The notes under the pieces: model-generated | What the model saw: the letters and a program-made list of their open reading frames with translations, nothing else | What the model was told of the DNA's origin: nothing | The model's database searches: none | In this document: positions 1 to 32,000 of the stretch, one piece after another | How positions within the stretch are numbered: position 1 is the first letter of the stretch | Layout: every line of letters begins with the position of its first letter | Made by a program: the position numbers and the translations under genes | Source of the DNA: Halomicronema hongdechloris C2206 | GTDB taxonomy: Bacteria; Cyanobacteriota; Cyanobacteriia; Phormidesmidales; Phormidesmidaceae | Reading direction: 5' to 3' | NCBI RefSeq assembly: GCF_002075285.3 | Contig: NZ_CP021983.2 | Coordinates: 1,530,001 to 1,562,000, forward strand | DNA: 32,000 bases

Positions 1-367
1 CAAACAGACCTACCTTATACTCAGCTCCGAGATCATAAAATGCCTGAAACTCCTGATAATCGTATCCTAGAGATTCGCCTTTATGGTTTCTATCTTGAGT
101 AATTTGGTAATTCTCTGGATGGTACTTTGCGGTATCCCAATAGCCTGTTTTGCTGGGATAGCAACCTGTTGAGAAGATCACCCAGTTTCGCTCAGAGCAA
201 ATTGTATCCGTTGCAGTCCCACATAAATCTACTTGAGTTTTGAGGCGTCCATAAGCGCCGCGATTACGTAACCCGCTCAAATTTGGTAGATGTCCTTGGG
301 ATATTAAACGCTCAAGCAACACTGGGTCTGCTGCATCTAAACCAATAGCAATTACTTTTTTCTTCAT
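1..367 (-). CDS. Alkaline-phosphatase superfamily protein (type I phosphodiesterase / nucleotide pyrophosphatase-like), N-terminal part; the 3' end runs off the window
   Basis: Hand translation of the minus strand from the ATG at 367-365 gives MKKKVIAIGLDAADPVLLERLISQGHLPNLSGLRNRGAYGRLKTQVDL... and stays open to position 1. The IGLDAADP...LPNL opening is typical of this family. It is missing from the ORF track because there is no stop in the window. The DNA is low G+C. Confidence 0.55.
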   Translation of the reverse strand, partial: MKKKVIAIGLDAADPVLLERLISQGHLPNLSGLRNRGAYGRLKTQVDLCGTATDTICSERNWVIFSTGCYPSKTGYWDTAKYHPENYQITQDRNHKGESLGYDYQEFQAFYDLGAEYKVGLF

Positions 368-616
368 AATATTCTCCTTATCAATTTCATTAACTCAAGA
401 AGCATTAAGCTGCCATTGGGAGTTTATGCCTATAAACATAAATAGTTGAAGTTCTTGGCAACCAAAACGCTCTGTAGAAGTCTGGCAAATAAGTTGATAG
501 ATAATCGCACTGTATTTATTCATCCTGGAGTTATCGCTTACTTACGAATTTAAATCACTTTCAAATCACTGCTCTCAATTAAAGTCTAATAATTCCGCAG
601 TCTTCATGATCTACCT

Positions 617-2425
617 TCAGCTTACATCTCTAAAGCAATTAGCCCAAAATAAATTCTCTAATGGCAGGGGCTTCTTAAGTTGATATCCCTGAACATAAGG
701 TATACCTAGTCTTTTGGCAACATCTAACATCAATTTCTTCTCAATTCCTTTGGCAATTATGGTGATTTTGGATGAATTGGCATGCTCAATAATATTCCTA
801 AATTCTTGCAATCTAACTAGGCTTTTCATATGCAATTCCAATGACAAAAAACTGAGTTTAAAGTGGTAAATGCTAGTTTCTGGTAGCTGTCGGAGAAGCC
901 CAGGATCACGAAAATCATCTAGAATAATGTTACAACCTATCTCTTCGATTTCGTGGGTCAAGCGAGCGACCGCATCTGGATAAGTTTTCGCCGCATGTTC
1001 AGGGATCTCAATCCAAAAATTCTCTGCAGGAAATTGATGTCGATTCAATAAATCAGAAAGAAAGACAGAGAAATACTGATCGCGTATGCTGGCCTGTGAC
1101 AGATTGATAGAGTAGTTTGCCTGACAGTTTTTTTGAGGTGATGATCTTTTGATTGAGTTGAATAGCGTTCGGATTACCCAGCGGTCAATTGTTTTGGTTA
1201 GTTCATAGTACTCAGCAATTGGCATGAAATCTTTTGGTAACAGAAGTCTCGTTGTAGGGGAATCGGAATTAAGTGTACAGGATAAGAGCCTGACTAATAC
1301 TTCATAGTTGAGTGGATCGTTTAGGCAATTATCAGTCGAGAAAATCGGTTGCTGGTATAAGCAGAAAAGATTATTCTCAAATCCCGACTCAATCTGATCA
1401 ATGACTGTCTTGCATTTATCCTTGCTAAGGCCACTCAAGGTAGTCTTACCGTAGTCTTTCAATCCCTTCCGAGCAATGAAAATTGGGCTAGATAATGTGC
1501 TAAAAAGGTATTCTCTTTCGCAGGCAAACAACAAATTTTTGTAAGGCTCTCGTTTTTCTCTAATTATATGCAACAATAACTTGCGTAAGTCATTAACTAT
1601 ATATAAAGGTAGCAATAAAGGTCGCTTCCAAGCGCTTGTACTTAATATGCGAATATAAAAGCGGCTTAGCCCAACACAACGTATTAAGGTAACTAAATAC
1701 TCTTTCTGAAGCCGTCCTTTAGGAATTTGATGGTAAACGACCATGGCTGGGTTATACCAAACTTCCCAGCCCGCTTTTCGGATATATAAGATGGCTTCTA
1801 AGTCTTCGCTGGCAAGGCCAGCAGCCTTACCTTTATTATTCAAGAATAATCGCCTAGGAACGCTTTGGAGCCACGCGTCTCGACGAACAACGAGTCCTGC
1901 TCCTGGTGGCAGAACCTTCGTATGTTGGTCGTAACGATGAGGATTTGGTCCTCGTTCGACAATGGCTAAGAAACAGGCAATATGTTTAAATTCCTCGGGT
2001 GGTGCTTGTTCAAAATCCCCGTGAATTTGACTGCCAAATGCGCCTGCTTCTGGATGTTGCTGGGCGAAGTTCCAAGCCTTAGCTACCCAATCGTCTTCTG
2101 GAAGGTTGTCATCATCTAGAAAGGCGATTAGCTTACCCCGAGCACTTTCTACCGCTCGCTGACGGGCAAAGGCGGCTCCTTGTTCCGCAACAAAGCAGTA
2201 CTGCAATTCAGCAGCCCCGGTCCAGGTGCGTTGATATTGCTGAGTTACTTGAGCTGTCTCATCCAGGCTATTGTTGTCACAGACAATAATTTCCCAAGTA
2301 ATGTGATCAACATGTTGCTGCGATCGCAACCGGTCCAACAGGCAAGGCAATCGCTGAGCACCATTATAGGTAGGGATGGCGACCGAGATATCTAACTGCT
2401 GTGTTGGTATACCAGAAATCACCAA
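617..2425 (-). CDS. Family-2 glycosyltransferase (HpsE-like, hormogonium-polysaccharide type) fused to a C-terminal EAL (c-di-GMP phosphodiesterase-fold) domain
   Basis: 602-aa ORF. N-terminal GT2 motifs are present: VAIPTYNGAQRLP, VCDNNSLDET, FLDDDN (DxD) and GAFGSQIHGDFE. The C-terminal ~260 aa carry the EAL-fold motifs in order: YEVLVRLL, SINLS, EIPE, ILDDF, FKLS, AKGIE, VQGYQLKKP. Confidence 0.8.
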   Translation of the reverse strand: MVISGIPTQQLDISVAIPTYNGAQRLPCLLDRLRSQQHVDHITWEIIVCDNNSLDETAQVTQQYQRTWTGAAELQYCFVAEQGAAFARQRAVESARGKLIAFLDDDNLPEDDWVAKAWNFAQQHPEAGAFGSQIHGDFEQAPPEEFKHIACFLAIVERGPNPHRYDQHTKVLPPGAGLVVRRDAWLQSVPRRLFLNNKGKAAGLASEDLEAILYIRKAGWEVWYNPAMVVYHQIPKGRLQKEYLVTLIRCVGLSRFYIRILSTSAWKRPLLLPLYIVNDLRKLLLHIIREKREPYKNLLFACEREYLFSTLSSPIFIARKGLKDYGKTTLSGLSKDKCKTVIDQIESGFENNLFCLYQQPIFSTDNCLNDPLNYEVLVRLLSCTLNSDSPTTRLLLPKDFMPIAEYYELTKTIDRWVIRTLFNSIKRSSPQKNCQANYSINLSQASIRDQYFSVFLSDLLNRHQFPAENFWIEIPEHAAKTYPDAVARLTHEIEEIGCNIILDDFRDPGLLRQLPETSIYHFKLSFLSLELHMKSLVRLQEFRNIIEHANSSKITIIAKGIEKKLMLDVAKRLGIPYVQGYQLKKPLPLENLFWANCFRDVS

Positions 2426-3303
2426 TGTCTTAAACTCCTTGAGCTTGGTAGAGACCCCTTGAGGTGATCACCAGTTCACCGGGGAGCTATGATATGGTGG
2501 CCACTCAGTCTTAGTTTAGCTCTCCCTGAGGCTGCATAATTTCATTGATCCATTCCCAGTGGCTCAACTCGGCATTTTAGCTTTGGATGCTGTCCATCTT
2601 TAAGGAAAAGGTAAATGTCTGTGGAGGCTATCCAATCTAGGAACATTTTAACTAGCCTTCCTCCTGGCGTCCTACTAATAAAGATGCGGGAATTATGACA
2701 GATCGATCGTATAAGCTAAGTCAGTTTAACCAGCACAGCCCTCACCTTACGGAAATACCTGTTTGCCGATTCAGTGAGTAATCTAGTCTAATTTGTTACA
2801 GGGCAAGTAGCGTGGTAACGGTGCGTTGACTTTACTATAGCTTTTTCGTATTTTCGGGTAAGTCGCATAAGCTTTATAAAAGCTTCAAACAAAGTTATCC
2901 TCTTCTCCACAAGCCCTATGGCCATCTACCAACTTTGGTAACTTCGCCAGTGCTGCATTATGGTAATGACGGCCGATAACTAAGAGCAGTATGAGCAAGT
3001 CAAGGGGCTGACTCTAGACTCAATCCAGCATGTGACTATTTGGCCCATCCTAACTTTATCCTCCCTGGCCAGCATGATCAGCACCACCTAAGATCTCTAC
3101 TTGGAATATTCTTGCTCTGGTATGATAATAGGTTTGAGGCAGTCCAAGGGAGTACAGCCGACTGGTGTTTGGCTGGCACGTAGATGTGCCTGTAAGCATC
3201 TCTAGATTTCAAGTTCGCTGAATTTTGGCTATAGGAGACCACCACTGACTAGAGTGTATCTTCTAGGCTATAGAGGTGAGATACGGGAGTGAGACAGTAG
3301 CCC

Positions 3304-3975
3304 ATGCCGCTGATGATTCTGGTGGCTGAAGATGATGAAGGCACTCGGCTGTCTATCAATGATTACCTTGAAATGCAAGGGTATTCAGTCGTTACGGCCA
3401 GCCACGGAGCCGAAGCCCTAGAGTGCATTCAAACCTATCAGCCCCATTTGTTGATTACCGATATTGCCATGCCCTACATGGATGGGTATGAGTTGGTACG
3501 CCAGGTGCGTCAGCAACCGATGCTGCGGCTCTTGCCAGTGGTTTTCTTGACGGCTCACAACGATACCGGGGATCGGATCCGAGGCTATCAGATGGGATGT
3601 GATCTCTATTTACCTAAGCCTTTTGAGTTGGAAGAGTTGGCCGCCATCGTCCGCAATCTGCTGGAACGGACGCAGATGATTCAGGCGGCTTGGCTGCAGC
3701 AATCTTCTCTAGAGATGCGGTCTGACGATGCCTCATTAACCCCCAATCAACGTCCTAAAGCCATGCCCGATACTATACAGCTGGATCTAACGGCTCGAGA
3801 ACGGGAGGTGCTGTCATTGCTATCCGACGGATTATCCAATGCCCAAATTGGGGACCAGCTTTACCTGAGTTCTCGCACCATAGAAAAATACGTCAGCAAC
3901 CTACTGCGCAAAACAGAGACAAATAATCGGGCAGAATTGGTACGGTTCGCCATCGATCATCACTTGGTGTCTTAG
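3304..3975 (+). CDS. Two-component response regulator, REC + LuxR/NarL-type HTH (Rre1/Ycf29-like)
   Basis: 223 aa. The receiver has ILVAEDDE, the phospho-acceptor context LLITDIAMPYMDG, and KPF. The C-terminus has the LuxR HTH (LTAREREVLSLLSDGLSNAQIGDQLYLSSRTIEKYVSNLLRK). Confidence 0.9.
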   Translation: MPLMILVAEDDEGTRLSINDYLEMQGYSVVTASHGAEALECIQTYQPHLLITDIAMPYMDGYELVRQVRQQPMLRLLPVVFLTAHNDTGDRIRGYQMGCDLYLPKPFELEELAAIVRNLLERTQMIQAAWLQQSSLEMRSDDASLTPNQRPKAMPDTIQLDLTAREREVLSLLSDGLSNAQIGDQLYLSSRTIEKYVSNLLRKTETNNRAELVRFAIDHHLVS

Positions 3976-6421: not shown

Positions 6422-9400
6422 TCATCGGTGGCGGCGATGGAGCAACCAGTAGGTGGTCATTTCACCGCGCCCTTTAATCGTAACGGTTCCCCGTTTCTGG
6501 AAGTGATACTGATCGTTAAGTCGTCGGTAGACCTGTTTGGTCACTTGAATGTGGTTAGCTTGCCCTTGGGATTCCATGCGACTGGCGACATTGACGGCAT
6601 CACCCCAGAGGTCGTAGGAGAACTTACGTTTGCCAATGACCCCAGCCACGACTGGCCCAGTAGCGATGCCAATGCGTAGCCCGAAGGAAGCCCCATCCTG
6701 ACGTTTGAACTGGGTAATAGCTTGCTGCATATCCAGGGCCATATCGGCGATGGCTTCGGTGTGGTTGGCCATCGGGTTGGGGACGCCTCCCACTACCATG
6801 TAGGCATCGCCGATGGTCTTGATTTTCTCTAGGCCGTGGGTTTCGGCGAGTTGATCGAAGATGGAAAAGATTTGGTTGAGGAGGTTGACGAGGTCGGTCG
6901 GTGCGATCGCAACAGACAGCCCCGTAAAGTCGACGATGTCGGCAAATAGGATGGTAGCTTCGTCAAAGCGATAGGCCACTGACTGGTGCTGCTGCTTCAG
7001 TTCTTCAGCAATGGATTCTGGCAAAATATTCAGCAACAGTCGTTCCGACTTCTCTCGCTCGATCTGCAGGGCCTCTTCTATTTGCTTACGCTCGGTGATA
7101 TCAGTGACAAACCCCTCAATAAACTCGGGAGTGCCATCAGCTGCATAGGTGCAGACGCCCTTTTCCAGTACCCATTTTTGCTCTCCTGCGGCCGTGATCA
7201 TGCGATAGATCGTCTCGAAAGGCTGGCGTTCCTGGATCGCCCGTTGTAGTTTTTCGCCCACGTAGGCATGATCCTCAGGATGGACTAGCCGACCAAAGGC
7301 TCCATTCACCTGCATCAATTCATCCGGTTGATATCCAGTTAGCTCGTAACACCCTTCACTGACAAAGGCCACCTGCCGCTCGTGATCGCACATGCGGCGA
7401 TAGGCCATGCCCGCTAAATTGCCCATCAGGGTAGCAAGATCCCGTTGGCTAGCTCGCAGGGCCTCTTCTGCCTGCTTGCGCTGGGTGATATCGGCCACAG
7501 TGCCCTCGTAGTAGAGGATCTGACCACTGCTGTTCTTGACTGTGCGGACATTCTCAGAGACCCAGATGATGGTGCCATCGGCCCGGTAGATCTGCGATTC
7601 AAACTTGGCCACAGAGCCTCGAGCATGTAACTGGTGTTCTAGGGCATGCCGATGCTCTGCATCGACATAGAGCCGCCGAATATCGCTTACCTGGCCAATC
7701 AATTCAGCCGGAGAGAGATACCCCAACATGCGAGCCAGGGCAGGGTTAGCACTGAGGCAACGACCTTGGTCATCCACCTGGAAAATTCCCTCGGCCACAT
7801 TCTCGAAAATGCTGCGATATTTCTCTTCCGCTCGCTGCAGGGCTAAGTCGGCTCGACGCCGTTCGGTGATATCGCGAGCCACCCAAATGACCCGATTGTT
7901 GGGCATGGGGGAGACAATGGCGGTGTACCAAGCAGTGGTCTCAAAATCTTCTGGAGCGGCGATGCCATCGGGATGGGTATCGTCTCGCCATTCCCCAATG
8001 GGTAAGCTGTAATCGAGGCGCACGGGTTGGCGAGTATTGAGGGCCTGCTGGATGTGGCGCATGAACAGCTGCGCTTGATAGGGCGGCAGGACATCGTAGA
8101 TGTTTTTGCCTTCCCGCTCGGTCTCGGGGTTATAGACCAAAGCCGAATTAGTGGCCACGATATTGAGGTACTGCCCCTCGGCATCGAACACCGTGATCAC
8201 ATCGGTCATAGCCGCAAACAGGGCCTTCAATTCCGCGGTAGAGGCCTGCAGCTCTTCTTCGGCCCGCTGGCGTTCACGAATCTCGGTCATCAGGCGCTCG
8301 TTGGCGGCACTCAGGGCTTCTGTGCGGGCTGTGACCCGTTGTTCCAGCTCTTCGTTGGCACGCTGGAGGGCGGCTTCCACCTCTTTGCGGTCGCTAATGT
8401 CTTCGACCGTGCCCTCGTAGTACAGCAGGGTGCCATCGTCAGTATGAACAGAGCGGGCATTTTCAGAAATCCAGATGATATTGCCATCCCGCTGGTAGAC
8501 CTGAGACTCAAAATTCTTGACCGAACCATGCTGCTGCAGAGTCCGGGTGAACTCTTCCCGGCGTTTCGGGTTGACATAGAGTTGCTGTTGGATGCTGGTG
8601 ATATTCGCCATCATGTCCGCTGGCGAATCATAGCCGTAGATTCTAGCCAGGGCAGGATTGGCACTGACATAGTGCCCATCTGAGGTGGTTTGAAAGATGC
8701 CCTCGACGGTATTTTCGAAGATGTTGCGGTACTTGGCTTCGGCTTCCCGTAGGGCCTCCTCCGCTTGTTTGCGCTCACTGATGTCAATGCCCACGGTAAA
8801 GGCCGCCTTGCCTTCGTTATATTTCTGGGCCACGATCAGGAACTGGCGGCGATTACCGCCCACGTAGGCAGAGACTTCTTTGAAGGCATCCTGCTGATCA
8901 CTCTGGAAGAAATCCGCTACAAATTGGTTAAACTCGGTGCTGGTATGGAGGAACCCAATGTCTTGATTGGTAAAGGCCTCAGCTGGCATCTTGAAGGTCT
9001 GGGCCAGATGCCGATTGACTCCCAGATACCGTAGGTCAGAACTAATCCACGACACGATGCCAGGCACGGCATCTAGGATGGCCTGCAGTTGATCCTTGGC
9101 ATCCCTGAGGGCATTTTCTGCTTGGGTTTGTTTGACCACCTCAGCCACGAGAGTGTCGTTGGAGACTTTGAGATGGGCGGTCTGCTCTTGGTATTTCTTC
9201 TCTAGGGCGGCTTTATCTCGGGTGAGTTGCTCCAGGGTCTGGGTGCGATCGCACAATGTCTGGCGCAACTCTGCCACTTCAGCTTGCAGGGCCTCCACTT
9301 GAGCTTGCAGGGCTACCCTCTGCGACGACTCGTCTGGGGGTGGCTCCAACGGCGATGCTGCTGGGGCAGCAGGATCTGGCGATGGGGACGGTTGCTGGGC

Positions 9401-23554: not shown

Positions 23555-23644
23555 GACCCTCCTAACGTCAGATGCGATTCCCAGGCCAAGGCACTAAGCT
23601 TCTAGTACAGATGCTCACTCGATACCTCAGAGGAGGTTGCTGCT

Positions 23645-23911
23645 ATGGTTGCGACTGCATCTCCCCAAACCCACGCCATTGTCGACCTCCTGGGCAACGA
23701 GGCCGACAATCTCCTCAATTATTCTGCCGAAGTCCCCAAAGAGTCCCTACACCTGCCCGGTCCAGACTGGGTCGATCGCATTTTCGCCTCCAGCGATCGC
23801 AATCCTCAGGTACTGCGTAGCCTACAACAACTCTACGGCAGTGGGCGCCTAGCTCACACTGGCTACCTCTCCATTTTGCCGGTAGATCAAGGGGTGGAGC
23901 GCTCTGGATAG
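23645..23911 (+). pseudogene. fbaB: 5' fragment (~85 codons) of an FbaB/DhnA-type class I fructose-bisphosphate aldolase gene, truncated at the island junction
   Basis: LLGNEADNLL...LHLPGPDWVDR...RNPQVLRSLQQLYGSGRLAHTGYLSILPVDQGVE matches the N-terminus of E. coli FbaB block for block. Similarity ends at GVE and a stop follows 3 codons later, whereas family members are ~350 aa. Confidence 0.85.
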
Positions 23912-23913
23912 GA

Positions 23914-25353
23914 GTGAAATTGAAGGAGTTCTTTGATTGGCGACGCCAAGGCGATCAACTACCCGGTCCGCCGGCTAGCCTTTTGTCTGGAAACTTGAGA
24001 GAGGTTCAGGAATACGGAGGCTTCTTCAGCTTCCTTCCAGCAATGCATCAACGGTATGGAAAGGTGCTTCGGTTCTGGATGGGATCGTCAGATCTGATGG
24101 TGTCCATTAGCGACCAGGATATTCTTTCTCAAATTGCTTCTACTTTACACTCAAGACCGAAAGCCGCCAAGAAAGCCTTGGGGTGGTTAGGGCATGAGAG
24201 TCCAACATTCAAGAGCCATGAGGAATTGAGGACCATTCGCTCAAAGGTGATGCCCTTGCTGATGGGTGAGTCCTTAAAGTATCTGTGCCTAGTTGGTCAA
24301 GAGCGCACGAAACGAATGCTGGACGGCTGGAAAACTGCGACTGACGCAGTCGAAGTGGCAAGCGACTTCAGTGAGATAACTTTTGATATCATTGGGGTCG
24401 CTTTATTTGGACAAGAGTTCAGTAGCACTGACCTAGGCCAAAAGTTCAAAAAATTGTTTGTGCATGTCCTCCGTGAGGCTCACCCAAGGTCTGAGGAAGT
24501 CATTCCTTCTTTCTGGGATCCAAAATATTGGCAATGGAGAAAGAGCATTTCCCGCTTGCAAGACTGCGCTGAACAACTGATCAAGCAGAGGAGACAAGCT
24601 CTAAATATGAATAAAAGGAAGGATTTATTGTCTCTGGTTCTAAGTGAGAAAGATGGAAGTGGGAATCCATTTTTCTCTGATGAACAAGCCCGTGCCACAA
24701 TTGTAACCTTTGTCTTTGCTGGGTTTGACACCTCTGCATCATCTTTAGCATGGATTTGCTATCTGCTCTCCCAACACCCTGAGGTTCAGGCTAGGGCACA
24801 GGATGAGGTTGATAAGGTACTGGCTGGTCGGTTGCCAGAGTTTGAGGATCTCGACAAACTTAACTATCTGACATGCGTGGTCAAAGAAGCAATGCGCTTG
24901 TACCCACCTGTTCCTGAGGCACTGCGAGCGCTGGAGTCAGATTTGGAAGTTGGTGGCTATTCCATTCCCAAAGGAGCAACCTTTGTTATTCCCATCTCTA
25001 TGCTCCATGAGGATGAACAGATTTGGGAGGAACCCAGAAAGTTTTTGCCAGAGCGTTTCACCCAAGAAAATGGAAAAGACCACCCTCGATATGCTTACCT
25101 TCCGTTCGGAACAGGTTCGAAGAGTTGTATGGGGGCAAGATTTGCCATGACAGAGATTCGACTGGTGCTAGCAATGATGCTGCAAAGGTTCTCATTACAG
25201 TTGGTTCCCGAGCAGGAAGTTATTCCGGAAATGCAATCCATTATTTTGCAACCGAAGTATGGGCTCAGGTTGAACGTTGTGACCAGAAACATGAATGGAA
25301 CCAGAGGACAGACTTTGGAATATTCTGCGTCTGCCGGAGTTGCCAACGCATGA
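23914..25353 (+). CDS. Cytochrome P450 (E-class, CYP3/4/110-like)
   Basis: 479 aa with a GTG start. Proline hinge LPGPP, I-helix AGFDTSA, K-helix EAMRLYPP, PERF, and the heme loop FGTGSKSCMGARFA. The last ~20 codons look like read-through into the next, decayed gene. Confidence 0.88.
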   Translation: MKLKEFFDWRRQGDQLPGPPASLLSGNLREVQEYGGFFSFLPAMHQRYGKVLRFWMGSSDLMVSISDQDILSQIASTLHSRPKAAKKALGWLGHESPTFKSHEELRTIRSKVMPLLMGESLKYLCLVGQERTKRMLDGWKTATDAVEVASDFSEITFDIIGVALFGQEFSSTDLGQKFKKLFVHVLREAHPRSEEVIPSFWDPKYWQWRKSISRLQDCAEQLIKQRRQALNMNKRKDLLSLVLSEKDGSGNPFFSDEQARATIVTFVFAGFDTSASSLAWICYLLSQHPEVQARAQDEVDKVLAGRLPEFEDLDKLNYLTCVVKEAMRLYPPVPEALRALESDLEVGGYSIPKGATFVIPISMLHEDEQIWEEPRKFLPERFTQENGKDHPRYAYLPFGTGSKSCMGARFAMTEIRLVLAMMLQRFSLQLVPEQEVIPEMQSIILQPKYGLRLNVVTRNMNGTRGQTLEYSASAGVANA

Positions 25354-25800
25354 AGGCGCGGAGGACTACCTTCTAACTGTAAAAAGTCTGGCATTGAATC
25401 GTGATGGTCAATGGTTTGCGGGGATTGGGCACAAAAAGAGGCGATCATGTTGCCTTGTTTTCGCCAAACGTTCTAGAATTCGTCATCTCCTATCTTGGCA
25501 TTTTGAAGCTCGGTGATGTTGCAGTTTCACTATACGTCAGGTATCACAGGTTTCCCCAAAGAGGCTACTTTTTCCCATGGCAATGTAATTTCTAACACCC
25601 ACTCATAGAACTGCTGTTGTGTAATGCGGCCTGATGAGCAGTTACTAGTTTACCTGCCCCTATTCCATTGCTTTGGTCAAAACGCAATTCTCAACAGTGG
25701 TTTCAATGCCTGTGCCACTATTATTCTGCAACGCCGATTAAACCAGAGCAAGTCCTGGAAACTATTACCGCTGAGCAGGCTGCTACCGTTGCTGCGAACT
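25291..25800 (+). pseudogene. Decayed AMP-dependent synthetase/ligase (acyl-CoA ligase) gene
   Basis: Family blocks are scattered over three frames: NGLRGLGTKRGDHVALFSPNVLEFVISYLGILKLGDVAVSL (frame of 25401), and then directly YTSGITGFPKEATFSHGNVISN (AMP motif, shifted frame). About 100 codons that normally separate these two blocks are missing. An in-frame TAG follows at 25606-25608, then LVYLPLFHCFGQN, then another shift to KPEQVLETITAEQ. Similarity is lost at ~25800. Confidence 0.8.
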
Positions 25801-26121
25801 TCCCACTGCCCAGACTTGAGAATAGGCAAAATCAATCGCCTCTTTTAATGCTTCATAAGTTCGCGCTCCAACTGAGCCCAAGATGCTCTTTACCTTCGAC
25901 CAAAATGGTTCTATCGGTGAGAAGTCTGGGGAATAGGGTGGTAAAAATCTGATCTCGGCACCTACCGCCTCAAGCGTAACTGTGACCTCTTCTGTGGCTT
26001 TATGGGTAGAGCTATTATCCACAATAAGTACGGCTCCAGGCCATAGCTTAGGTGCTACTCGACGAATGATGTACGCTTCAAATGTCGGCTCTCTTGGATC
26101 TATGGTGACGGACTTGTTTTC
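25783..26121 (-). mobile_element. IS630/Tc1-mariner family transposase, C-terminal fragment only
   Basis: The minus strand reads ...TFEAYIIRRVAPKLWPGAVLIVDNSSTHKATEE...RFLPPYSPDFSPIEPFWSKVK (the DDE third-Asp/Glu region). There is no N-terminal half, and it abuts the ISL3 stop codon at 26122. Confidence 0.8.
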
Positions 26122-26505
26122 TCAGGAGAAACAGGCTAATAGCCTAATTCGCAGATTTTCAAAGTTTGTAAACCCATAAGCCTGCCGCTTGATCAACTTT
26201 ATTTTGTTGTTTATCCCTTCCATAACTCCACTGGTTGTACGGTCGATAAAGTAATGACATATTCCATCAAGATGGTTTTTAATCGTTTTGATACAACTGC
26301 AATACAGATTTTCTCCTTCTTTCATCCACTTTTCTAGTTGAATTCGGGCTTCTTCTGGCGCTTGGTAAGATTGATAAATATCTCTGAAACTCTCTTTAAG
26401 CTCATAAGCCTTTCTCAATCGCTGAGAGCACCTCAGAACCTCCTCTACTTGCTCTTCTTGTTCTGCATCTAACTCAGACCTACTCTTGAGTATTAAGTAT
26501 TTTGG
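26122..26505 (-). mobile_element. ISL3 family transposase, C-terminal fragment
   Basis: KYLILKSRSELDAEQ...LRKAYELKESFRDIY...DRTTSGVMEGINNKIKLIKRQAYGFTNFENLRIRLL is the canonical ISL3 C-terminus. Confidence 0.8.
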
Positions 26506-27168
26506 TGGTGCTACACAGGTAATGATGCATTGCAGTGATGAATGAAGTTCCACAACAATCCGATATGATTGCGTAGACTTTTTGAGAAGGCCAAACTCCG
26601 TCGCACAAACCGTGAGACTCGCTGACGCAGGGTGCAGTTGAATCGCTCGATATAGCTGGTTTTGCCACTCGCTTTAGTCACTACCCGATGCCGCTTCTGG
26701 GGCAGCATGCTCTGGTAGGCTTCCCACTCATCGGTGCAGAGCACGGCGCACTGACGATAGACCGGCGGCAGTGATCGCCACAGGCGCTGGGCGCGCTCTC
26801 GATCCCGCCTGCCCACGTGCGCCTCAATGATTTCTCGGGTATCGGCATCAAGGGCAAGCCAACCCCATTGTTTGTTGCCTTTATGGTCAACGAAGGACCA
26901 AAGTTCGTCGCACTGCACGGTTAATTGCCTTTTTTTTGGGCTGTACCTCGGCCCGGGTCGCGGTTTGTGCCGATTTGTCCTTGACGGAATCCTGCAGCCA
27001 TTGTTCGGAAACCTGCATCGCTCGCGCGATGCCAGCCATCGAGATGCGTTCCAGCAGAAGTCTGTCAATCAGCTCTCGGGTCGGCTGGTCAATGCGTTTA
27101 TCCGTTGGATTCTCCATGAACTGGTAACCGCATTGGCGGCAGAGAAAGCGTTGTTTTCCGGTATGAAT
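26506..27168 (-). mobile_element. IS1 family element, 5'-truncated (InsA-like and InsB-like frames)
   Basis: The InsA-like part is IHTGKQRFLCRQCGYQF...LLLERISMAGIARAMQVSEQWL. The InsB-like part is CDELWSFVDHKGNKQWGWLALDADTREI...YIERFNCTLRQRVSRFVRRSLAFSKSLRNHIGLLWNFIHHCNASL. The two frames overlap at an A8 run. The first CxxC of InsA and the left end are absent. Confidence 0.8.
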
Positions 27169-27471
27169 ACGCTCTGTTGAATGGCGGTCGAAATCGATAA
27201 AATCTATCGCTTCTGTAAAGTACTTCTGACAGTTTTCACACTTAAACTGGCGACGCTCGATTGTCAGTACTGTAAATTTTCCCAAGATTGACAAATCGCG
27301 AACTTGCAGTGGACGATGCTGATTAACTTTATCTGTTTCACAGCCACAAAACTGGCAAGGTACAGACTGATTGAGCCATCTCAGACCCAAATGCACTTCA
27401 TTGTCAGTCTCCGTACACCTCTCTATGGTTACATTTGGAAAATTGAGCAATCGTTCTAAATGAAAGTCCAT
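27169..27471 (-). mobile_element. ISL3 family transposase, N-terminal zinc-finger fragment (same gene as 26122-26505, split by the IS1 piece with the middle ~200 codons lost)
   Basis: MDFHLERLLNFPNVTIERCTE...CQFCGCETDKVNQHRPLQVRDLSILGKFTVLTIERRQFKCENCQKYFTE is the typical ISL3 N-terminus. Confidence 0.8.
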
Positions 27472-27598
27472 TTCTCTTGTGATTGTGTTTGTGCCTCAGT
27501 ATACATGAGACACCGTCTATCCAGGAGAGCCTAAATTTTTCACTTGTCTGGCATTCTTTTGAGGATGCCTAGAAGGAGAAAACTTGAGCTGAATCTCA

Positions 27599-28477
27599 TC
27601 AAAACGAGATAGCTGGAGAGCGCGAGGCTAAAAAGGATTGAAACCGACTTACTATTTCGGATCTTTGCTCAGACCTCCAAACAAGACCTACTTTACGGCT
27701 CAAATGAAGGTCTGAGAGGTGCAAATATTTTATGATGCTGCCAACTTGCTTTTGACATGGCATTATTGCCAAACCAATTCCTGCAGCAACAAGGGCCTTA
27801 GTCCATTCGTCAGAAGGCGACTGATAAATAATTTTAGGACAAATATTTTTGGATGCGAATAATTCCTGCAACTGATTTCGAATTTCGCATTCACTCCGGT
27901 CGATATAAGAATAATTATTCAGGACTTCTAAAGATACTGATTTTCTCTCTGCTAGAGGATGATCTTTGGCAACTGCAAGTAAATACTCTTCTTGAAAAAG
28001 GGTAGACGACGAGCTTTTTATTTCATTATCTTGTAAGACACAGATAATAAGATCAATTTCTCCTTTATCTAGCAAACTCTTTAGCTTTGGCACGCTGCTA
28101 TCGTTCAGTTGCTCTATTTTTACGCCTGGATTAAATTTGATAAATTCACTAATCAACTCAGTTAAATAAGTCACGGATATCGTGTCAAAAATACCTATTC
28201 TAAGTAGATTGTAACTTTCGCATTCTTTCTTTATCTCTTGCCTGGCTGATTCATATTCCCTGATAATAGTTTTAGCTTTGTTTAGAAAAAGCTTTCCTGC
28301 CTGAGTTAGAAGAACACGTTTCTTCCCTCGTTCAAAGAGCCTTACTCCAAACTCTTCCTCTAGCTTTTTAATACCTACTGATAATGAGGGTTGAGTGATA
28401 AATAGGCATTCTGCTGCTTTTGTAAAACTCCCCGTTTCAGCCACAGTGATGAAATACTTGAGTCGTTCTGGGTTCAT
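27599..28477 (-). CDS. LysR-family transcriptional regulator
   Basis: 292 aa. N-terminal wHTH (LKYFITVAETGSFTKAAECLFITQPSLSVGIKKLEEEFGVRLFER) followed by a LysR substrate-binding fold. Very low G+C: my count on one 60-nt line, 28021-28080, is 17/60. Confidence 0.9.
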   Translation of the reverse strand: MNPERLKYFITVAETGSFTKAAECLFITQPSLSVGIKKLEEEFGVRLFERGKKRVLLTQAGKLFLNKAKTIIREYESARQEIKKECESYNLLRIGIFDTISVTYLTELISEFIKFNPGVKIEQLNDSSVPKLKSLLDKGEIDLIICVLQDNEIKSSSSTLFQEEYLLAVAKDHPLAERKSVSLEVLNNYSYIDRSECEIRNQLQELFASKNICPKIIYQSPSDEWTKALVAAGIGLAIMPCQKQVGSIIKYLHLSDLHLSRKVGLVWRSEQRSEIVSRFQSFLASRSPAISF

Positions 28478-28737
28478 ATCTCTTTCCTCTCATAATCTAT
28501 TTCATTTCTAAGGGAGTTGTAGACAGATGACTCAGCTGATGAGGTAAGTGACCGAAAACCTGGCAATGCAAGTGATCGCGCAACCTCAAGATTTTCTTCG
28601 CAAGCAGACTCTAAATTTCAACAGATAAGATGTTACTCCGTAAGGACCCACATGGAAGCGGTATGGATTTGTTGCCATTTAGTGATGAGCTCCCCTGTTA
28701 AGGGCGAGAAATTGAGCGATCGCCCCTTGGGCTAGAA

Positions 28738-29199
28738 TTAAGATGTAGAATTGGAGTAATCATTGATAATTTCCCAAACCACCTCAATTCCTGTAACAAA
28801 TTGCCATCCAAACAGCACAGTGATAGTAAGGGCGATTGCAATATGTGTGTAGCGTGCCCATTCTTTGCCTCGTTGCATCAGAGGTGCTAATGCCGCTGCA
28901 TTTGCCATTAGCACTGTCATTCCTAAGCCAACGAGGGTATGGGGAACCACATACAACTTGCCACTGTTAAGGTATTCGATACCCAGGACACCGATACTGC
29001 CAGTTGTCATTAATGCCAAGAGTAAAGCTCCGAGTTGGTAGTGTCTTTGTCCGAATTTCTGTTTGACCAACGCTTTTTTCAGCTCGCCAGTTGCAGTCCG
29101 GGTACGCCGAACTTGAATCCCCAAATAGAGGGCATAGAGTGTGAAAACAAACACGACCCACATCCAAGCGGGATGGATTGCATAGAGCCAGTAGTTCAT
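28738..29199 (-). CDS. DUF4079-family integral membrane protein
   Basis: 153 aa with four hydrophobic helices. The N-terminus HPAWMWVVFVFTLYALYLGIQVRRTR and the later HYQLGALLL / PHTLVGL histidines resemble the cyanobacterial/plant DUF4079 family. Confidence 0.65.
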   Translation of the reverse strand: MNYWLYAIHPAWMWVVFVFTLYALYLGIQVRRTRTATGELKKALVKQKFGQRHYQLGALLLALMTTGSIGVLGIEYLNSGKLYVVPHTLVGLGMTVLMANAAALAPLMQRGKEWARYTHIAIALTITVLFGWQFVTGIEVVWEIINDYSNSTS

Positions 29200-29421
29200 A
29201 GTAGGGTCTCGTTTACTCGGAAAATGAAAGCTATACTGTTCCAGATTCTACTGTCCACTCTGATCCTCCAGAATTACTATTCACGGCTCTCCTGGTTTTA
29301 GGGTGAGAGAGGTTCAGTAAGGATACAAAAATCTTGCTGTTGAAATATTGAAAGGCTTGCTGTGAAAGGCTTTCAGGATTGATCCGTTGTACTCGTCACC
29401 ATGGATCCAAGAGAGCCCTAT

Positions 29422-30042
29422 TCACCAGCTTGAAATGAGAGCCTGAATCGCTGTTTGCGCAGCTGTCAGTGATTGCTGTCGGGCTTCATCTCCCATTGTC
29501 AAATTCTCAGCGTGGATAAAGGTGATATCAGTAATCCCAATGAACCCAAAGATTGCCCGCAGGTAGGGTTCTTGAAAATCGAGATGTGCTGTTGGCGTGC
29601 TAGCCGAGTAACTGCCACCTCGTGCTGTAATCACCAGCATTTTCTTATCTTTTACTAAACCTTTCTCGCCATCTGCCCCCATCGCAAATGTCCGTTGAAC
29701 ACGTACAATCTGGTCAATGTAGGCTTTGAGATTTGCTGGAACGCTAAAGTTGTACATTGGAACGCCAAAAACATAGCGATCGGCAGCTAATAATTCGTCA
29801 ATCAGCTCATCTGAAATCGTCAAGGCAGTGGCTAGATGGGGAGAGATCTTGTCTGACGAACTGAATGCAGCAGCAATCCAAGCTTCGTCAACAGGTGGAA
29901 CTGGATATTGTCCAATATCTCGATACGTTACTGTGTCGTTGGGGTGCTGCTGTTCCCAAGCAGTAATAAATTCTTTGGTGAGGGAGCGAGAAACCGAACG
30001 CTCCACGCGTGGACTGAAATCCACATAAAGGATATGTGTCAT
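29422..30042 (-). CDS. azoR: FMN-dependent NADH-azoreductase / quinone reductase (AzoR/AcpD family)
   Basis: 206 aa. ILYVDFSPRVERSVSRSLTKEFI, YVFGVPMYNFSVPANLKAYIDQIVR and VITARGG are the flavodoxin-like AzoR blocks. Confidence 0.82.
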   Translation of the reverse strand: MTHILYVDFSPRVERSVSRSLTKEFITAWEQQHPNDTVTYRDIGQYPVPPVDEAWIAAAFSSSDKISPHLATALTISDELIDELLAADRYVFGVPMYNFSVPANLKAYIDQIVRVQRTFAMGADGEKGLVKDKKMLVITARGGSYSASTPTAHLDFQEPYLRAIFGFIGITDITFIHAENLTMGDEARQQSLTAAQTAIQALISSW

Positions 30043-30204
30043 TTTAATGATGGGTAGTTTAATTCAACTCAATGACGCGATCGCACTAGCGCAACCGTAA
30101 GAATGGCACTAACGATTACAACCCTACGTCTTCTCATATCTCAGTATCCAGAAGAGTTTGATGCGGTTATTGCAAAGTCTTCTGTTTTTTCAGCAAATTC
30201 TTAC

Positions 30205-30212
30205 TGATTTTT
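30205..30212. repeat. Left copy of the 8-bp target-site duplication TGATTTTT of the IS66-family element
   Basis: Identical octamer at 31791-31798; both lie immediately outside the inverted repeats. Confidence 0.8.
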
Positions 30213-31790
30213 GTAATTAGTCACCGCAACAAGACGAGGCTATTGCGAATAAGGCAAAAGTCTGTAGAGTAAGGGATATGACGATACACCCCTCCTCAGA
30301 ATTGAACCGCTCGGAGATCGACCCTGAAGAACAGGGGGCGAGGTATTGGTACGAGCGCTATTGCGAGCAACGAGCAGAGACCGAACGCCTTAAGGAACGG
30401 GTGAAAGCGTTAGAGGAGCAATTTGAGCGTCTCAATGAGAAACTTAGGAAGCTGAGTGAACGAACCAGTGAGACGAGTTCACAGCCACCGTCTTCAGATG
30501 GCCCCAAGAAACCGAACCGGGACCCGCAAAAGCCCCAACGAAAACGAGGCCCCAAATACAACCACCCTGGCAAGACCCGCAATGGCTTTGGCTAGATTAA
30601 CCACGCCGAGTTGCTCGAGGTGCAACGCTGTCCGATTTGCGGGGGTAGCGTGGAGCGCCAACTCCAGGGAACCAAACGACAGCAAGTCGCCGAACTGGTG
30701 CCGGATCTCGTCGAGGTTTGGGAGTACGAGCGCCCCTTGTATCGGTGTCCGGCCTGCAGGTGGCAGGGCTATCAGGACTTGCCGCTGGGGTGCCGAGAAG
30801 GGTTTAGCTATGGTGGACGGCTGAGTAGTGTAGTGGGCTGGTTGGGGTATGGGGGCACCCTATCCTGGTCAAAACAGCGTTATGTCGTCGAGAGCATCTT
30901 CGGGATTCCGATGTCTCAGGGGAGCTTAGCCAAACTCCATCAGTGGTTTTGTGAGGCTCTGCAACCCGCGTACGAGCAGTGGTGGAGTTGGATTCAACAG
31001 CCTGGCGTGCGCTGTGTTGATGAGACCAGCTATCGCTTAAATGGCGTGAATCATTGGATTTGGATCGCCACCGCCCCGGAGTGCTGTGTGCTGTTCTTTG
31101 CCCCCACCCGGAGCTCAGCCGAGGTCAAGACCCTCTTGGGAGAGGACTTCTCAGGGGTCCTCAGCAGCGACTGCTGGTCGGCCTATGGACCGCAATCGGC
31201 AGTTGCCAAGCAGAAGTGTTGGGCGCACCTGGAAGGGGAACTCAAGGCGTTAGCCACCTCTCGCTTCTCAGAAAATCGGGAGTTTGCCCACCGCGTCTTC
31301 CCCATTATCCACACCGCTCGGCAAGCCCACCGGGACTACCATCAGGGGCGGCTAGTCGGGCTGAACTTCAAGCCCTCAGGCCCATTGTTGAAGCAGAATT
31401 AGCCGATGTGCTGGAGCATCCGCTTAAGGGGCGTTGGGCGGCTGATGCCCAAACATTGGCCAATCGATTTGGCAGACATTGGTCAGATTGGTTTACCTTT
31501 CTCTCCCAGCCTGAGGTAGACCCAGACAACAATGACGCAGAACGCGGTCTGCGGCCTGTAGTGATTCATCGCAAAGTCACCAGCGGTGCCCGCAGTGATT
31601 GGGGCGCTCAGCTTGTGGCCATGATGTTCAGTTTTCTCGAATCGATGCGCCGTCAAGGTGAAAATGCCGTAGACCGACTCTTTGAGCTCATCGCCTCGTC
31701 GGGATGCTCACCTCCCGCTTTGTTACCAGGGTAAGTCTACAGCGTCAGAGGCTGTCTCATTAAGCCTCTACTATTGCGGTGACTAGTTAT
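30213..31790 (+). mobile_element. IS66-family insertion sequence (single-ORF, ISBst12-like size, 1578 bp) with intact ends but an inactivated transposase
   Basis: IRL at 30213-30229 is GTAATTAGTCACCGCAA. The reverse complement of 31774-31790 is ATAACTAGTCACCGCAA (15/17), extending imperfectly to ~28 bp. An 8-bp TSD flanks both ends, and the internal ORFs are IS66-type. Confidence 0.85.
30278..31734 (+). pseudogene. IS66-family transposase, disrupted by one in-frame TAG (30593-30595) and one frameshift (~31340-31350)
   Basis: Three track ORFs join into one ~485-aa protein. The first has a leucine-zipper N-terminus with SSQPPSSDGPKK...KRGPKYNHPGKTR. The second has the zinc finger CPICGG...CPACR and the DDE core (VDETSYRLNG...SDCWSAY...QKCWAHL). 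The third is the C-terminal DNNDAERGLRPVVIHRKVTSG. Confidence 0.85.
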
Positions 31791-32000
31791 TGATTTTTTT
31801 GAAATGCTTTAGGTGTTACTCCGACTAATCGCTTGAAATGGTAATTCAAATGGCTTTGGTGAGAAAATCCAAGGTTATGGGCAATATCTGCAATTGCCAC
31901 TTCATGATCCCGTAACAGTTGCTTGGCGCAGTTGATTTTGCATTGAATAATATATCTATGAGGCGAAATTCCCATTGCTTGTTTAAACAAGGTGGCGAAA
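31787..32000 (-). CDS. AraC/XylS-family transcriptional regulator, C-terminal HTH part (5' end outside the window)
   Basis: ...FATLFKQAMGISPHRYIIQCKINCAKQLLRDHEVAIADIAHNLGFSHQSHLNYHFKRLVGVTPKAFQKNQ is the double-HTH AraC signature. The frame stays open to the window edge. The stop codon lies inside the IS66 terminus. Confidence 0.85.
   Translation of the reverse strand, partial: FATLFKQAMGISPHRYIIQCKINCAKQLLRDHEVAIADIAHNLGFSHQSHLNYHFKRLVGVTPKAFQKNQ
31791..31798. repeat. Right copy of the 8-bp target-site duplication TGATTTTT
   Basis: Identical to 30205-30212. Confidence 0.8.

Follow-up and report, generated by a model that had tools for sequence, protein, structure and literature searches.

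A 5' remnant of fbaB is joined to a truncated cytochrome P450 gene at the edge of an insertion sequence-rich block in Halomicronema hongdechloris C2206

Here, we provide evidence that the gene annotated as fbaB in the chlorophyll-f cyanobacterium Halomicronema hongdechloris C2206 is the 5' quarter of the organism's own gene for an FbaB/DhnA-type class I fructose-bisphosphate aldolase (FBA), and that it breaks off inside the gene to run directly into the interior of a foreign cytochrome P450 gene whose beginning is likewise missing. The locus lies in a 32,000-nucleotide (nt) stretch of the chromosome (NZ_CP021983.2), referred to throughout as the window, and all positions are counted from the first letter of that stretch. 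A window position w corresponds approximately to genome coordinate 1,529,999 + w; the anchor for this conversion is the ISL3 element listed by the genome authors at 1555122-1557559, whose entry (written 1557559-1555122) starts with the reverse complement of window ~27560. The junction at 23906/23907 truncates both genes and is a new result, placed here to the nucleotide. We have very high confidence in the descriptive part of this account, namely that an fbaB remnant in its ancestral position is joined at 23906/23907 to a foreign, 5'-truncated P450 gene and that the frames of the two differ. For the account as a whole, which adds a deletion as the pathway that led to the join, our confidence is only slightly better than even.

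Results

A preliminary description of the window, made from the letters alone, had proposed that the open reading frame (ORF) at 23645-23911 on the forward strand reproduces the N-terminus of an FbaB/DhnA-type aldolase and ends right after the block LSILPVDQGVE. Profile searches, tblastn and nucleotide alignment all bear this out. The ORF encodes 88 amino acids (aa), and its TAG stop codon (23909-23911) sits in P450-derived DNA. Four NCBIfam models of class I FBA (PRK09250, the FbaB/DhnA group) match it. The best of these is NF006707 (E=5.6e-31), which aligns ORF residues 9-87 with profile positions 4-83 of 355; for NF006707, NF006705 and NF006706 the E values run from 5.6e-31 to 1.4e-24, with coverage of only ~3-83 of ~350 positions. 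The NF006707 score of 107.8 bits lies below the curated full-length cutoff of 327, so that the ORF does not qualify as a full-length equivalog, and a Pfam search with the 88-aa ORF alone gave no match. The ORF is 60-79% identical to cyanobacterial FbaB members, and the G+C content at third codon positions of the remnant (0.60) is like that of native genes. The N-terminal 87 residues are thus alike in the remnant and in FbaB/DhnA-type class I FBA (the E. coli FbaB type; NF006707/PRK09250; PF01791, DeoC/LacD), but just a quarter of the protein is left: FbaB relatives in genomes are ~355-360 aa long, which agrees with the fourfold difference in length put forward earlier.

The rest of the gene is nowhere in the window. 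As query for tblastn we used a 359-aa relative rebuilt from locus L002, which comes from a noisy assembly and contains three frameshifts. When this query was compared with the whole window, its residues 1-85 matched 23645-23905 (76% identity, E=8e-38), and the second-best match reached merely E=0.75. Since residues 1-85 make up the sole match, the ~274 remaining fbaB codons are absent from the window in every frame, as the preliminary description had stated. One ORF further downstream (30611-31402; 263 aa, G+C ~0.58) was considered as the missing 3' part, because 88 and 263 aa add up to approximately one FbaB, but it encodes an IS66 transposase (NF033517, E=1.5e-50).

There is no family of stand-alone FbaB N-terminal proteins of ~88 aa, the existence of which would have spoken against the earlier reading of the ORF. 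In a genome scan with the C-terminal 274 aa of the protein the best 80 loci were listed, 74 of which were usable for judging continuity at the N-terminus, and in all 74 the N-terminal block is contiguous with the rest of the gene. The short "aldolases" in databases are partial entries from contig edges (short contigs) or frameshift-split genes in error-rich assemblies, for example L001-L003. The latter (ENA ERZ2680845/47/48) are long contigs from a Halomicronema-like organism in which many genes are split by frameshifts, with fbaB in two to three pieces and, in L001, glycogen phosphorylase in five; they look like uncorrected long-read assemblies that seed spurious short "proteins" into protein databases.

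The breakpoint can be read from both of its sides. In a nucleotide alignment of the remnant with ten relatives, identity runs to GAG CGC TCT G, after which the relatives read CNGCN, and the last aldolase-identical position is 23906. At the breakpoint, then, all ten relatives have GAG CAY TCN GCN GCN (IEHSAA) and the window has GAG CGC TCT G followed by GATAGGAGTGAAATTGAAGGAG. From the other side, blastn aligns window 23907-25280 with L084 7860-9233 at 85.7% identity over 1374 nt. The P450 gene of L084 starts at 7792, which means that the match begins 68 nt inside that gene and that the window P450 is therefore missing ~68 nt (~23 codons). The frames of the fbaB remnant and the P450 gene differ (23914-23645 = 269 = 3x89+2); hence the aldolase frame reads G/GA TAG across the join, stops after two codons of P450 DNA, and no fusion protein is encoded. 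By eye, we saw no canonical slippery heptamer for a -1 frameshift that would produce an FbaB'-P450 fusion (the P450 frame is open from 23821). The preliminary description had placed a precise left junction of an insertion or deletion event at 23913/23914. A precise junction does exist and fbaB has been destroyed, but the position is 23906/23907, and the join connects one gene interior to another instead of marking the end of an inserted element.

At 23906/23907 we found neither an IS (insertion sequence) terminus nor a repeat in either orientation, and no target duplication; a tRNA search of the window returned none; and none of the ORFs scanned in 23907-32000 matched an integrase family. With no IS end, target duplication, tRNA gene or integrase at the join, we regard the junction as non-homologous. 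The closest IS-derived sequence starts only at ~25783, so that no IS terminus abuts the breakpoint, and the border is not that of a classical genomic island, which would have a tRNA gene or an attachment (att) repeat together with an integrase. The locus does share several features with the pseudogene remnants that lie at the borders of IS-rich, horizontally acquired regions in bacteria: a compositional step, several IS families, elements that are nested and degraded, and, at the border itself, a housekeeping-type gene that has been cut short. Unlike in those cases, the edge here is a blunt join of two gene interiors, not an element terminus, an att site or a tRNA gene. The exact 30-nt junction sequence had no match in public metagenomes.

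In the tables of the genome paper the remnant is XM38_014570, "fbaB", and the gene that follows is XM38_014580, "Putative cytochrome P450 120" (PMC6416890); the name "P450 120", as carried in GenBank, is a label only. The longest ORF of this P450 gene extends from GTG 23914 to 25353 (479 aa). GenBank places the start at ATG 24043 (436 aa, P0121), which would drop the conserved PGPP hinge. Because homology to relatives extends as far as 23907, the start has probably been annotated too far into the gene, which is 5'-truncated whichever start is taken. The preliminary description had noted that the P450 frame is open back to 23821 and had suspected an incomplete 5' end, and it was right on both counts: an in-frame stop stands at 23818-23820, and the gene has ~23 codons fewer than its closest relative. 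The closest relatives are P0122 (81% identity) and P0124, P0125 (Leptolyngbya sp. Heron Island J) and P0126 (60-64%), with identities that cover ~460 residues and the same motifs; all others are below 40%. The protein alignment starts at IGVKLKEFF, two codons upstream of GTG 23914, and four full-length relatives have ~9-35 more residues, mostly hydrophobic, before that point. The N-terminal hydrophobic segment that precedes the PGPP hinge is thus not present in the window P450. The heme loop (FGTGSKSCMG), the I-helix motif (AGFDTS), the ExxR motif (EAMR) and PGPP itself are all present. The neighborhoods of close relatives contain methyltransferases, a halogenase and FAD monooxygenases, with transposases adjacent in both contexts examined. 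Compared with this clade (P0122/P0124/P0125/P0126) and its secondary-metabolite-like clusters, the window P450 lacks its own upstream region and the cluster partner genes, and it is probably the leftover of a mobile secondary-metabolite cluster.

The left half of the join is where fbaB would be expected to be. A divergent pair made up of a glyoxalase-family gene on the reverse strand and a full-length fbaB on the forward strand occurs in at least seven other cyanobacterial loci (L002-L005, L007, L010 and L035; L004 is from Halomicronema sp. CCY15110). In these loci, the orthologs of the glyoxalase-family gene of the window are 43-55% identical to it and lie on the opposite strand, directly upstream of fbaB. 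This conserved divergent neighbor indicates that the remnant is the organism's own fbaB in its ancestral place. A sigma-70 consensus scan of the divergent intergenic region (23555-23644) found nothing, and promoter and terminator scans gave counts equal to those for shuffled sequence. On the other side of the junction, the downstream genes of the window lie within 10 kb of fbaB in 0 of 80-83 related loci. At L041 (11922-13220; Iningainema tapete BLCC-T55) a P450 gene is found ~1.1 kb downstream of a full-length fbaB; it is unrelated (30% identical to the window P450), and its location is probably a coincidence.

What remains of fbaB cannot encode an aldolase. In the full-length ortholog, PF01791 covers residues 74-335. 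The remnant ends at residue 87 and so keeps only ~14 residues of an aldolase barrel domain that is ~262 residues long in the ortholog, far from a complete DeoC/LacD (beta/alpha)8 domain. The closest solved structure to the full-length ortholog is the class IA fructose-bisphosphate aldolase (FBPA) of Thermoproteus tenax (1OJX, E=2.8e-15), with which it shares the TIM-barrel core. The alignment to 1OJX begins at ortholog residue 68, so that the remnant and the structure have only ~20 residues in common and a barrel cannot be formed. In T. tenax FBPA, K177 is the Schiff-base-forming lysine; the lysine that aligns with it in the ortholog is at residue ~241, far past the end of the remnant. With nearly the whole barrel and this lysine gone, we infer that the remnant is a dead pseudogene.

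In the published tandem mass tag (TMT) proteome, zero peptides are listed for all genes in the range XM38_014560 to 014680, among them XM38_014570 and the P450, and two for PspA, just upstream (PMC6416890). A further gene, XM38_005380, annotated "FBA class 1", has 90 TMT peptides, and the preliminary description's term paralog for the destroyed gene is plausible beside it. From supplementary file 3 of PMC6416890 we used the name and peptide-count columns alone. The Gene Ontology columns of that file appear shifted relative to the gene rows: the row of the P450 reads "DNA binding" and that of a Na+/H+ antiporter "fructose-bisphosphate aldolase activity".

Neither half of the join has detectably decayed. 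Of 26 columns with a conservation of 95% or more, the remnant departs from the 74 relatives at two (I84V and H86R). The second of these changes, two codons before the breakpoint (codon 86, 23900-23902), replaces the His of the IEHS block, which is invariant in 74/74 relatives, with Arg (CAY to CGC). In a leave-one-out comparison, however, nine of the 74 intact relatives also depart at two or more such columns, and for this reason decay of the remnant is not demonstrable. In a relative-rate test the P450 has 20-23 lineage-specific changes compared with 28-35 in its relative, and thus no acceleration. Because decay is detectable in neither half, the event looks recent, and we assign it no date beyond that.

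The DNA to the right of the junction differs in character from that to the left (Table 1), in line with the lower G+C content and the IS fragments reported in the preliminary description. G+C is 0.547 for 3501-23906 and 0.451 for 23907-30250, compared with a published genome mean of 54.6%, and ranges from 0.38 to 0.56 inside the right-hand block; copies of IS630, of ISL3 interrupted by IS1, and of IS66 are found there. It had also been claimed that HIP1 (GCGATCGC) is missing from 23801-28715. Copies do stand at 23793 and then at 28716 with none between, but the gap is not significant alone: native DNA has 11 copies per 23.9 kb, from which ~2.3 would be expected in a gap of this length, with P(0) ~0.1. 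Nor does the low-G+C block end at ~28.7 kb. The IS66 element near the right end of the window is a simple insertion, and the sequence beyond it (31790-32000) has a G+C of 0.379, from which it follows that the block reaches the window end and runs past it. A second low-G+C stretch (0.37-0.43) occupies positions 1-3500 at the left end of the window and is separate from the block studied here.

Much of the block is debris. In the AMP-binding pieces, the ORF at 25624-25848 has no Pfam match and is AMP-binding-like by eye only, through the motif LPLFHCFG; this debris is cut off by the IS630 fragment. The ISL3 element is supported by PF01610 and NF033550 for its C-terminal half and by the PF14690 zinc ribbon for its N-terminal part, and an IS1-family insert (~26511-27180, G+C ~0.55; PF03400, NF033558) interrupts it. 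The 194-aa ORF at 26887-27471 is chimeric: part of it encodes the zinc ribbon of ISL3 and part of it InsA-like sequence of IS1. The ISL3 element has no target-site duplication (its flanks are CAAATGTC and TAAATTTT), and so at least one flank has been rearranged. A miniature inverted-repeat transposable element (MITE) lies between the DUF4079 gene and the azoreductase-like gene, and its right-hand duplication overlaps the stop codon of the latter. The coding sequence of the IS66 transposase is broken up between two or more frames (ORFs 30611-31402 and 31054-31734), and this copy is therefore probably inactive.

Table 1. Features at and around the fbaB/P450 junction (window coordinates).
Feature	Position	Strand	Description
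Glyoxalase/bleomycin-resistance-family gene, 125 aa	23177-23554	-	Pfam PF00903, E=7.5e-6
Divergent intergenic region, presumed fbaB promoter and 5' untranslated region	23555-23644		Presumed from position only
fbaB 5' remnant	23645-23906	+	262 nt of aldolase-derived coding DNA (87 codons + 1 nt)
Breakpoint, non-homologous join of fbaB interior and P450 interior	23906/23907		Approximately genome 1,553,905/1,553,906
Cytochrome P450 gene lacking ~23 N-terminal codons, otherwise intact	23907-25353	+	PF00067, E=2.2e-94, profile 2-456/462
AMP-binding (acyl-CoA synthetase-like) pseudogene pieces, degraded	25401-25848	+	PF00501, E=1.4e-10 for 25401-25595, profile 36-81/384
IS630-type (DDE_3) transposase, C-terminal fragment	25783-26022	-	PF13358, E=3.3e-12, profile 85-143/146
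ISL3-family element, interrupted by IS1-family element	26087-27531	-	Terminal inverted repeats GGCTCTCTTGG... / ...CCAGGAGAGCC
LysR-family regulator, intact	27599-28477	-	PF00126, PF03466; G+C 0.38
DUF4079 membrane protein, intact	28738-29199	-	PF13301, E=1.1e-42; G+C 0.46
MITE, 133 bp, ISL3-type inverted repeats	29285-29417		GGCTCTCC... / ...GAGAGCC; perfect 8-bp target duplication CTATTCAC
FMN-dependent NADH-azoreductase-like gene, intact	29422-30042	-	PF02525, E=2e-52; NF010075, E=4.2e-36; G+C 0.47
IS66-family element, frameshifted transposase	30213-31790	+	8-bp target duplication TGATTTTT; NF033517, PF03050, PF13005; inverted repeat

Searches beyond the window favor loss of the 3' part of fbaB over its displacement to another site, and fall short of proof. 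No H. hongdechloris locus was among the best 80 matches of the genome scan with the C-terminal 274 aa, and no H. hongdechloris protein was among the best 120 matches (down to ~71% identity) of a protein search with the C-terminal 194 aa. The protein searches covered annotated ORFs and listed matches up to 1.75x the query length (154 aa for the 88-aa query and 340 aa for the 194-aa query); full-length relatives of a short fragment consequently fall outside such a search, and paralogs of more than 340 aa outside the one with the C-terminal 194 aa.

Discussion

We propose that a single non-homologous (illegitimate) recombination event made the join at 23906/23907. Before that event, a low-G+C, IS-laden block of secondary-metabolism leftovers would have settled downstream of fbaB. 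The event itself would most likely have taken the form of a deletion in which the 3' ~820 nt of fbaB were lost together with the intervening DNA and the start of the P450 gene. Loss of fbaB may have been tolerable because the cell has other aldolase capacity, as the peptide count of XM38_005380 suggests. Several points weigh against this account. The pathway is unobserved: there is no uninterrupted sister genome for comparison, and downstream synteny is kept in no related locus. A displaced 3' part was looked for by indirect means, among the best 80 genome loci and annotated ORFs of 340 aa or less. The junction is known from a single assembly, with no metagenome match to second it. The type of aldolase encoded by XM38_005380 is known from its annotation label only. 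Finally, the silence of the locus in the published proteome is weak, supportive evidence, given that roughly every second protein there has zero peptides.

The join could also have formed by direct replacement during gene transfer. In such a model, linear foreign DNA with an end that happened to lie inside a P450 gene would have entered the chromosome through illegitimate recombination, which may have been homology-facilitated, and the 3' part of fbaB would have been swapped together with the DNA downstream of it in a single step that makes a later deletion unnecessary. A connection from gene interior to gene interior, with no element end and no obvious microhomology, agrees with this model; the composition changes exactly at the join; and both halves look fresh. 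The block, however, combines several IS types, nested insertions, a MITE that has its own target duplication, and a G+C content that varies from 0.38 to 0.56. Such a mosaic is more readily explained by a long stay with repeated rearrangement than by a single recent uptake. In addition, the G+C of the P450 gene (0.475) is already above that of its closest relative (0.418), and the right-hand junction lies outside the window, so that no homologous anchor is in view. On balance we consider direct replacement unlikely, and favor a deletion that reached into a block already in residence.

A third model invokes an inversion or translocation, in which the join would be one of two reciprocal junctions and the 3' three-quarters of fbaB would reside elsewhere in the chromosome, adjoining the 68 nt that are missing from the P450 gene. 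In favor of this model, the genome has 123 published IS ORFs of 62 types, and the ISL3 element that has no target duplication shows that rearrangements did occur in the block. IS-mediated inversions, on the other hand, leave an IS at the junction, and there is none here. The 32-kb window contains no other aldolase-like sequence, and the genome and protein searches with the C-terminal part, both incomplete as tests, returned no match from H. hongdechloris. We therefore think it doubtful that the other part of fbaB has survived at a second site, and continue to favor its deletion.

It is conceivable that natural selection then retained an accidental promoter capture, with the anchor-less P450, deprived also of its own promoter, transcribed from the fbaB promoter, the 88-codon stump acting as an upstream leader ORF, and translation reinitiating at GTG 23914 or TTG 23920 to make a soluble enzyme. 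If this were true, a foreign membrane-associated P450 would have become a soluble enzyme under central-metabolism control. The arrangement at the join would fit, in that the TAG at 23909-23911 ends 2 nt ahead of GTG 23914 and an AGGAG (23910-23914) stands 5 nt before the in-frame TTG 23920. Furthermore, the P450 ORF and its catalytic motifs are intact, the PGPP hinge has been kept, there is no rate acceleration, and the ratio of nonsynonymous to synonymous substitution (dN/dS) relative to L084 is 0.235. The AGGAG-N5-TTG stretch, however, is ordinary coding sequence that is also present in relatives (L084 reads GGA GTG AAG TTG) and was not shaped for this role, and an intact ORF is equally predicted by a recent event alone. 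The neighboring genes of the putative pathway are debris, and in the published data no P450 peptide is recorded under white light, under far-red light or in the shift conditions (PMC6416890). Promoter capture thus strikes us as very improbable. Least likely of all, to the point that we give it almost no weight, is an assembly artifact, with the published C2206 contig being chimeric at this point: the join is indeed known from this one genome only (its protein cluster has one member on one contig, and no metagenome has an exact match), but it lies in unique sequence and not in a repeat, the 5.58-Mb chromosome is finished and its authors report frameshift verification, and a chimera would not account for the coherent composition step or for the fact that the rest of both genes is missing nearby.

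The feature described here is an ordinary, apparently recent pseudogene scar of genome rearrangement that has been annotated as a gene, and not a new kind of gene. Its main value lies in the correction of annotation, and it has no bearing on the open questions of the field. XM38_014570 was deposited as an ordinary coding sequence, fbaB, and passes from there into UniRef as "fructose-bisphosphate aldolase". We recommend that it be marked as a pseudogene, and XM38_014580 as a 5'-truncated P450 gene. The two-sided junction, exact to the nucleotide, cleanly illustrates how DNA is joined without homology where an acquired, IS-rich block meets native sequence, and it provides a marker for comparing Halomicronema strains. 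For the biology of this chlorophyll-f organism, the consequence is that metabolic reconstructions should not count the locus as an aldolase.

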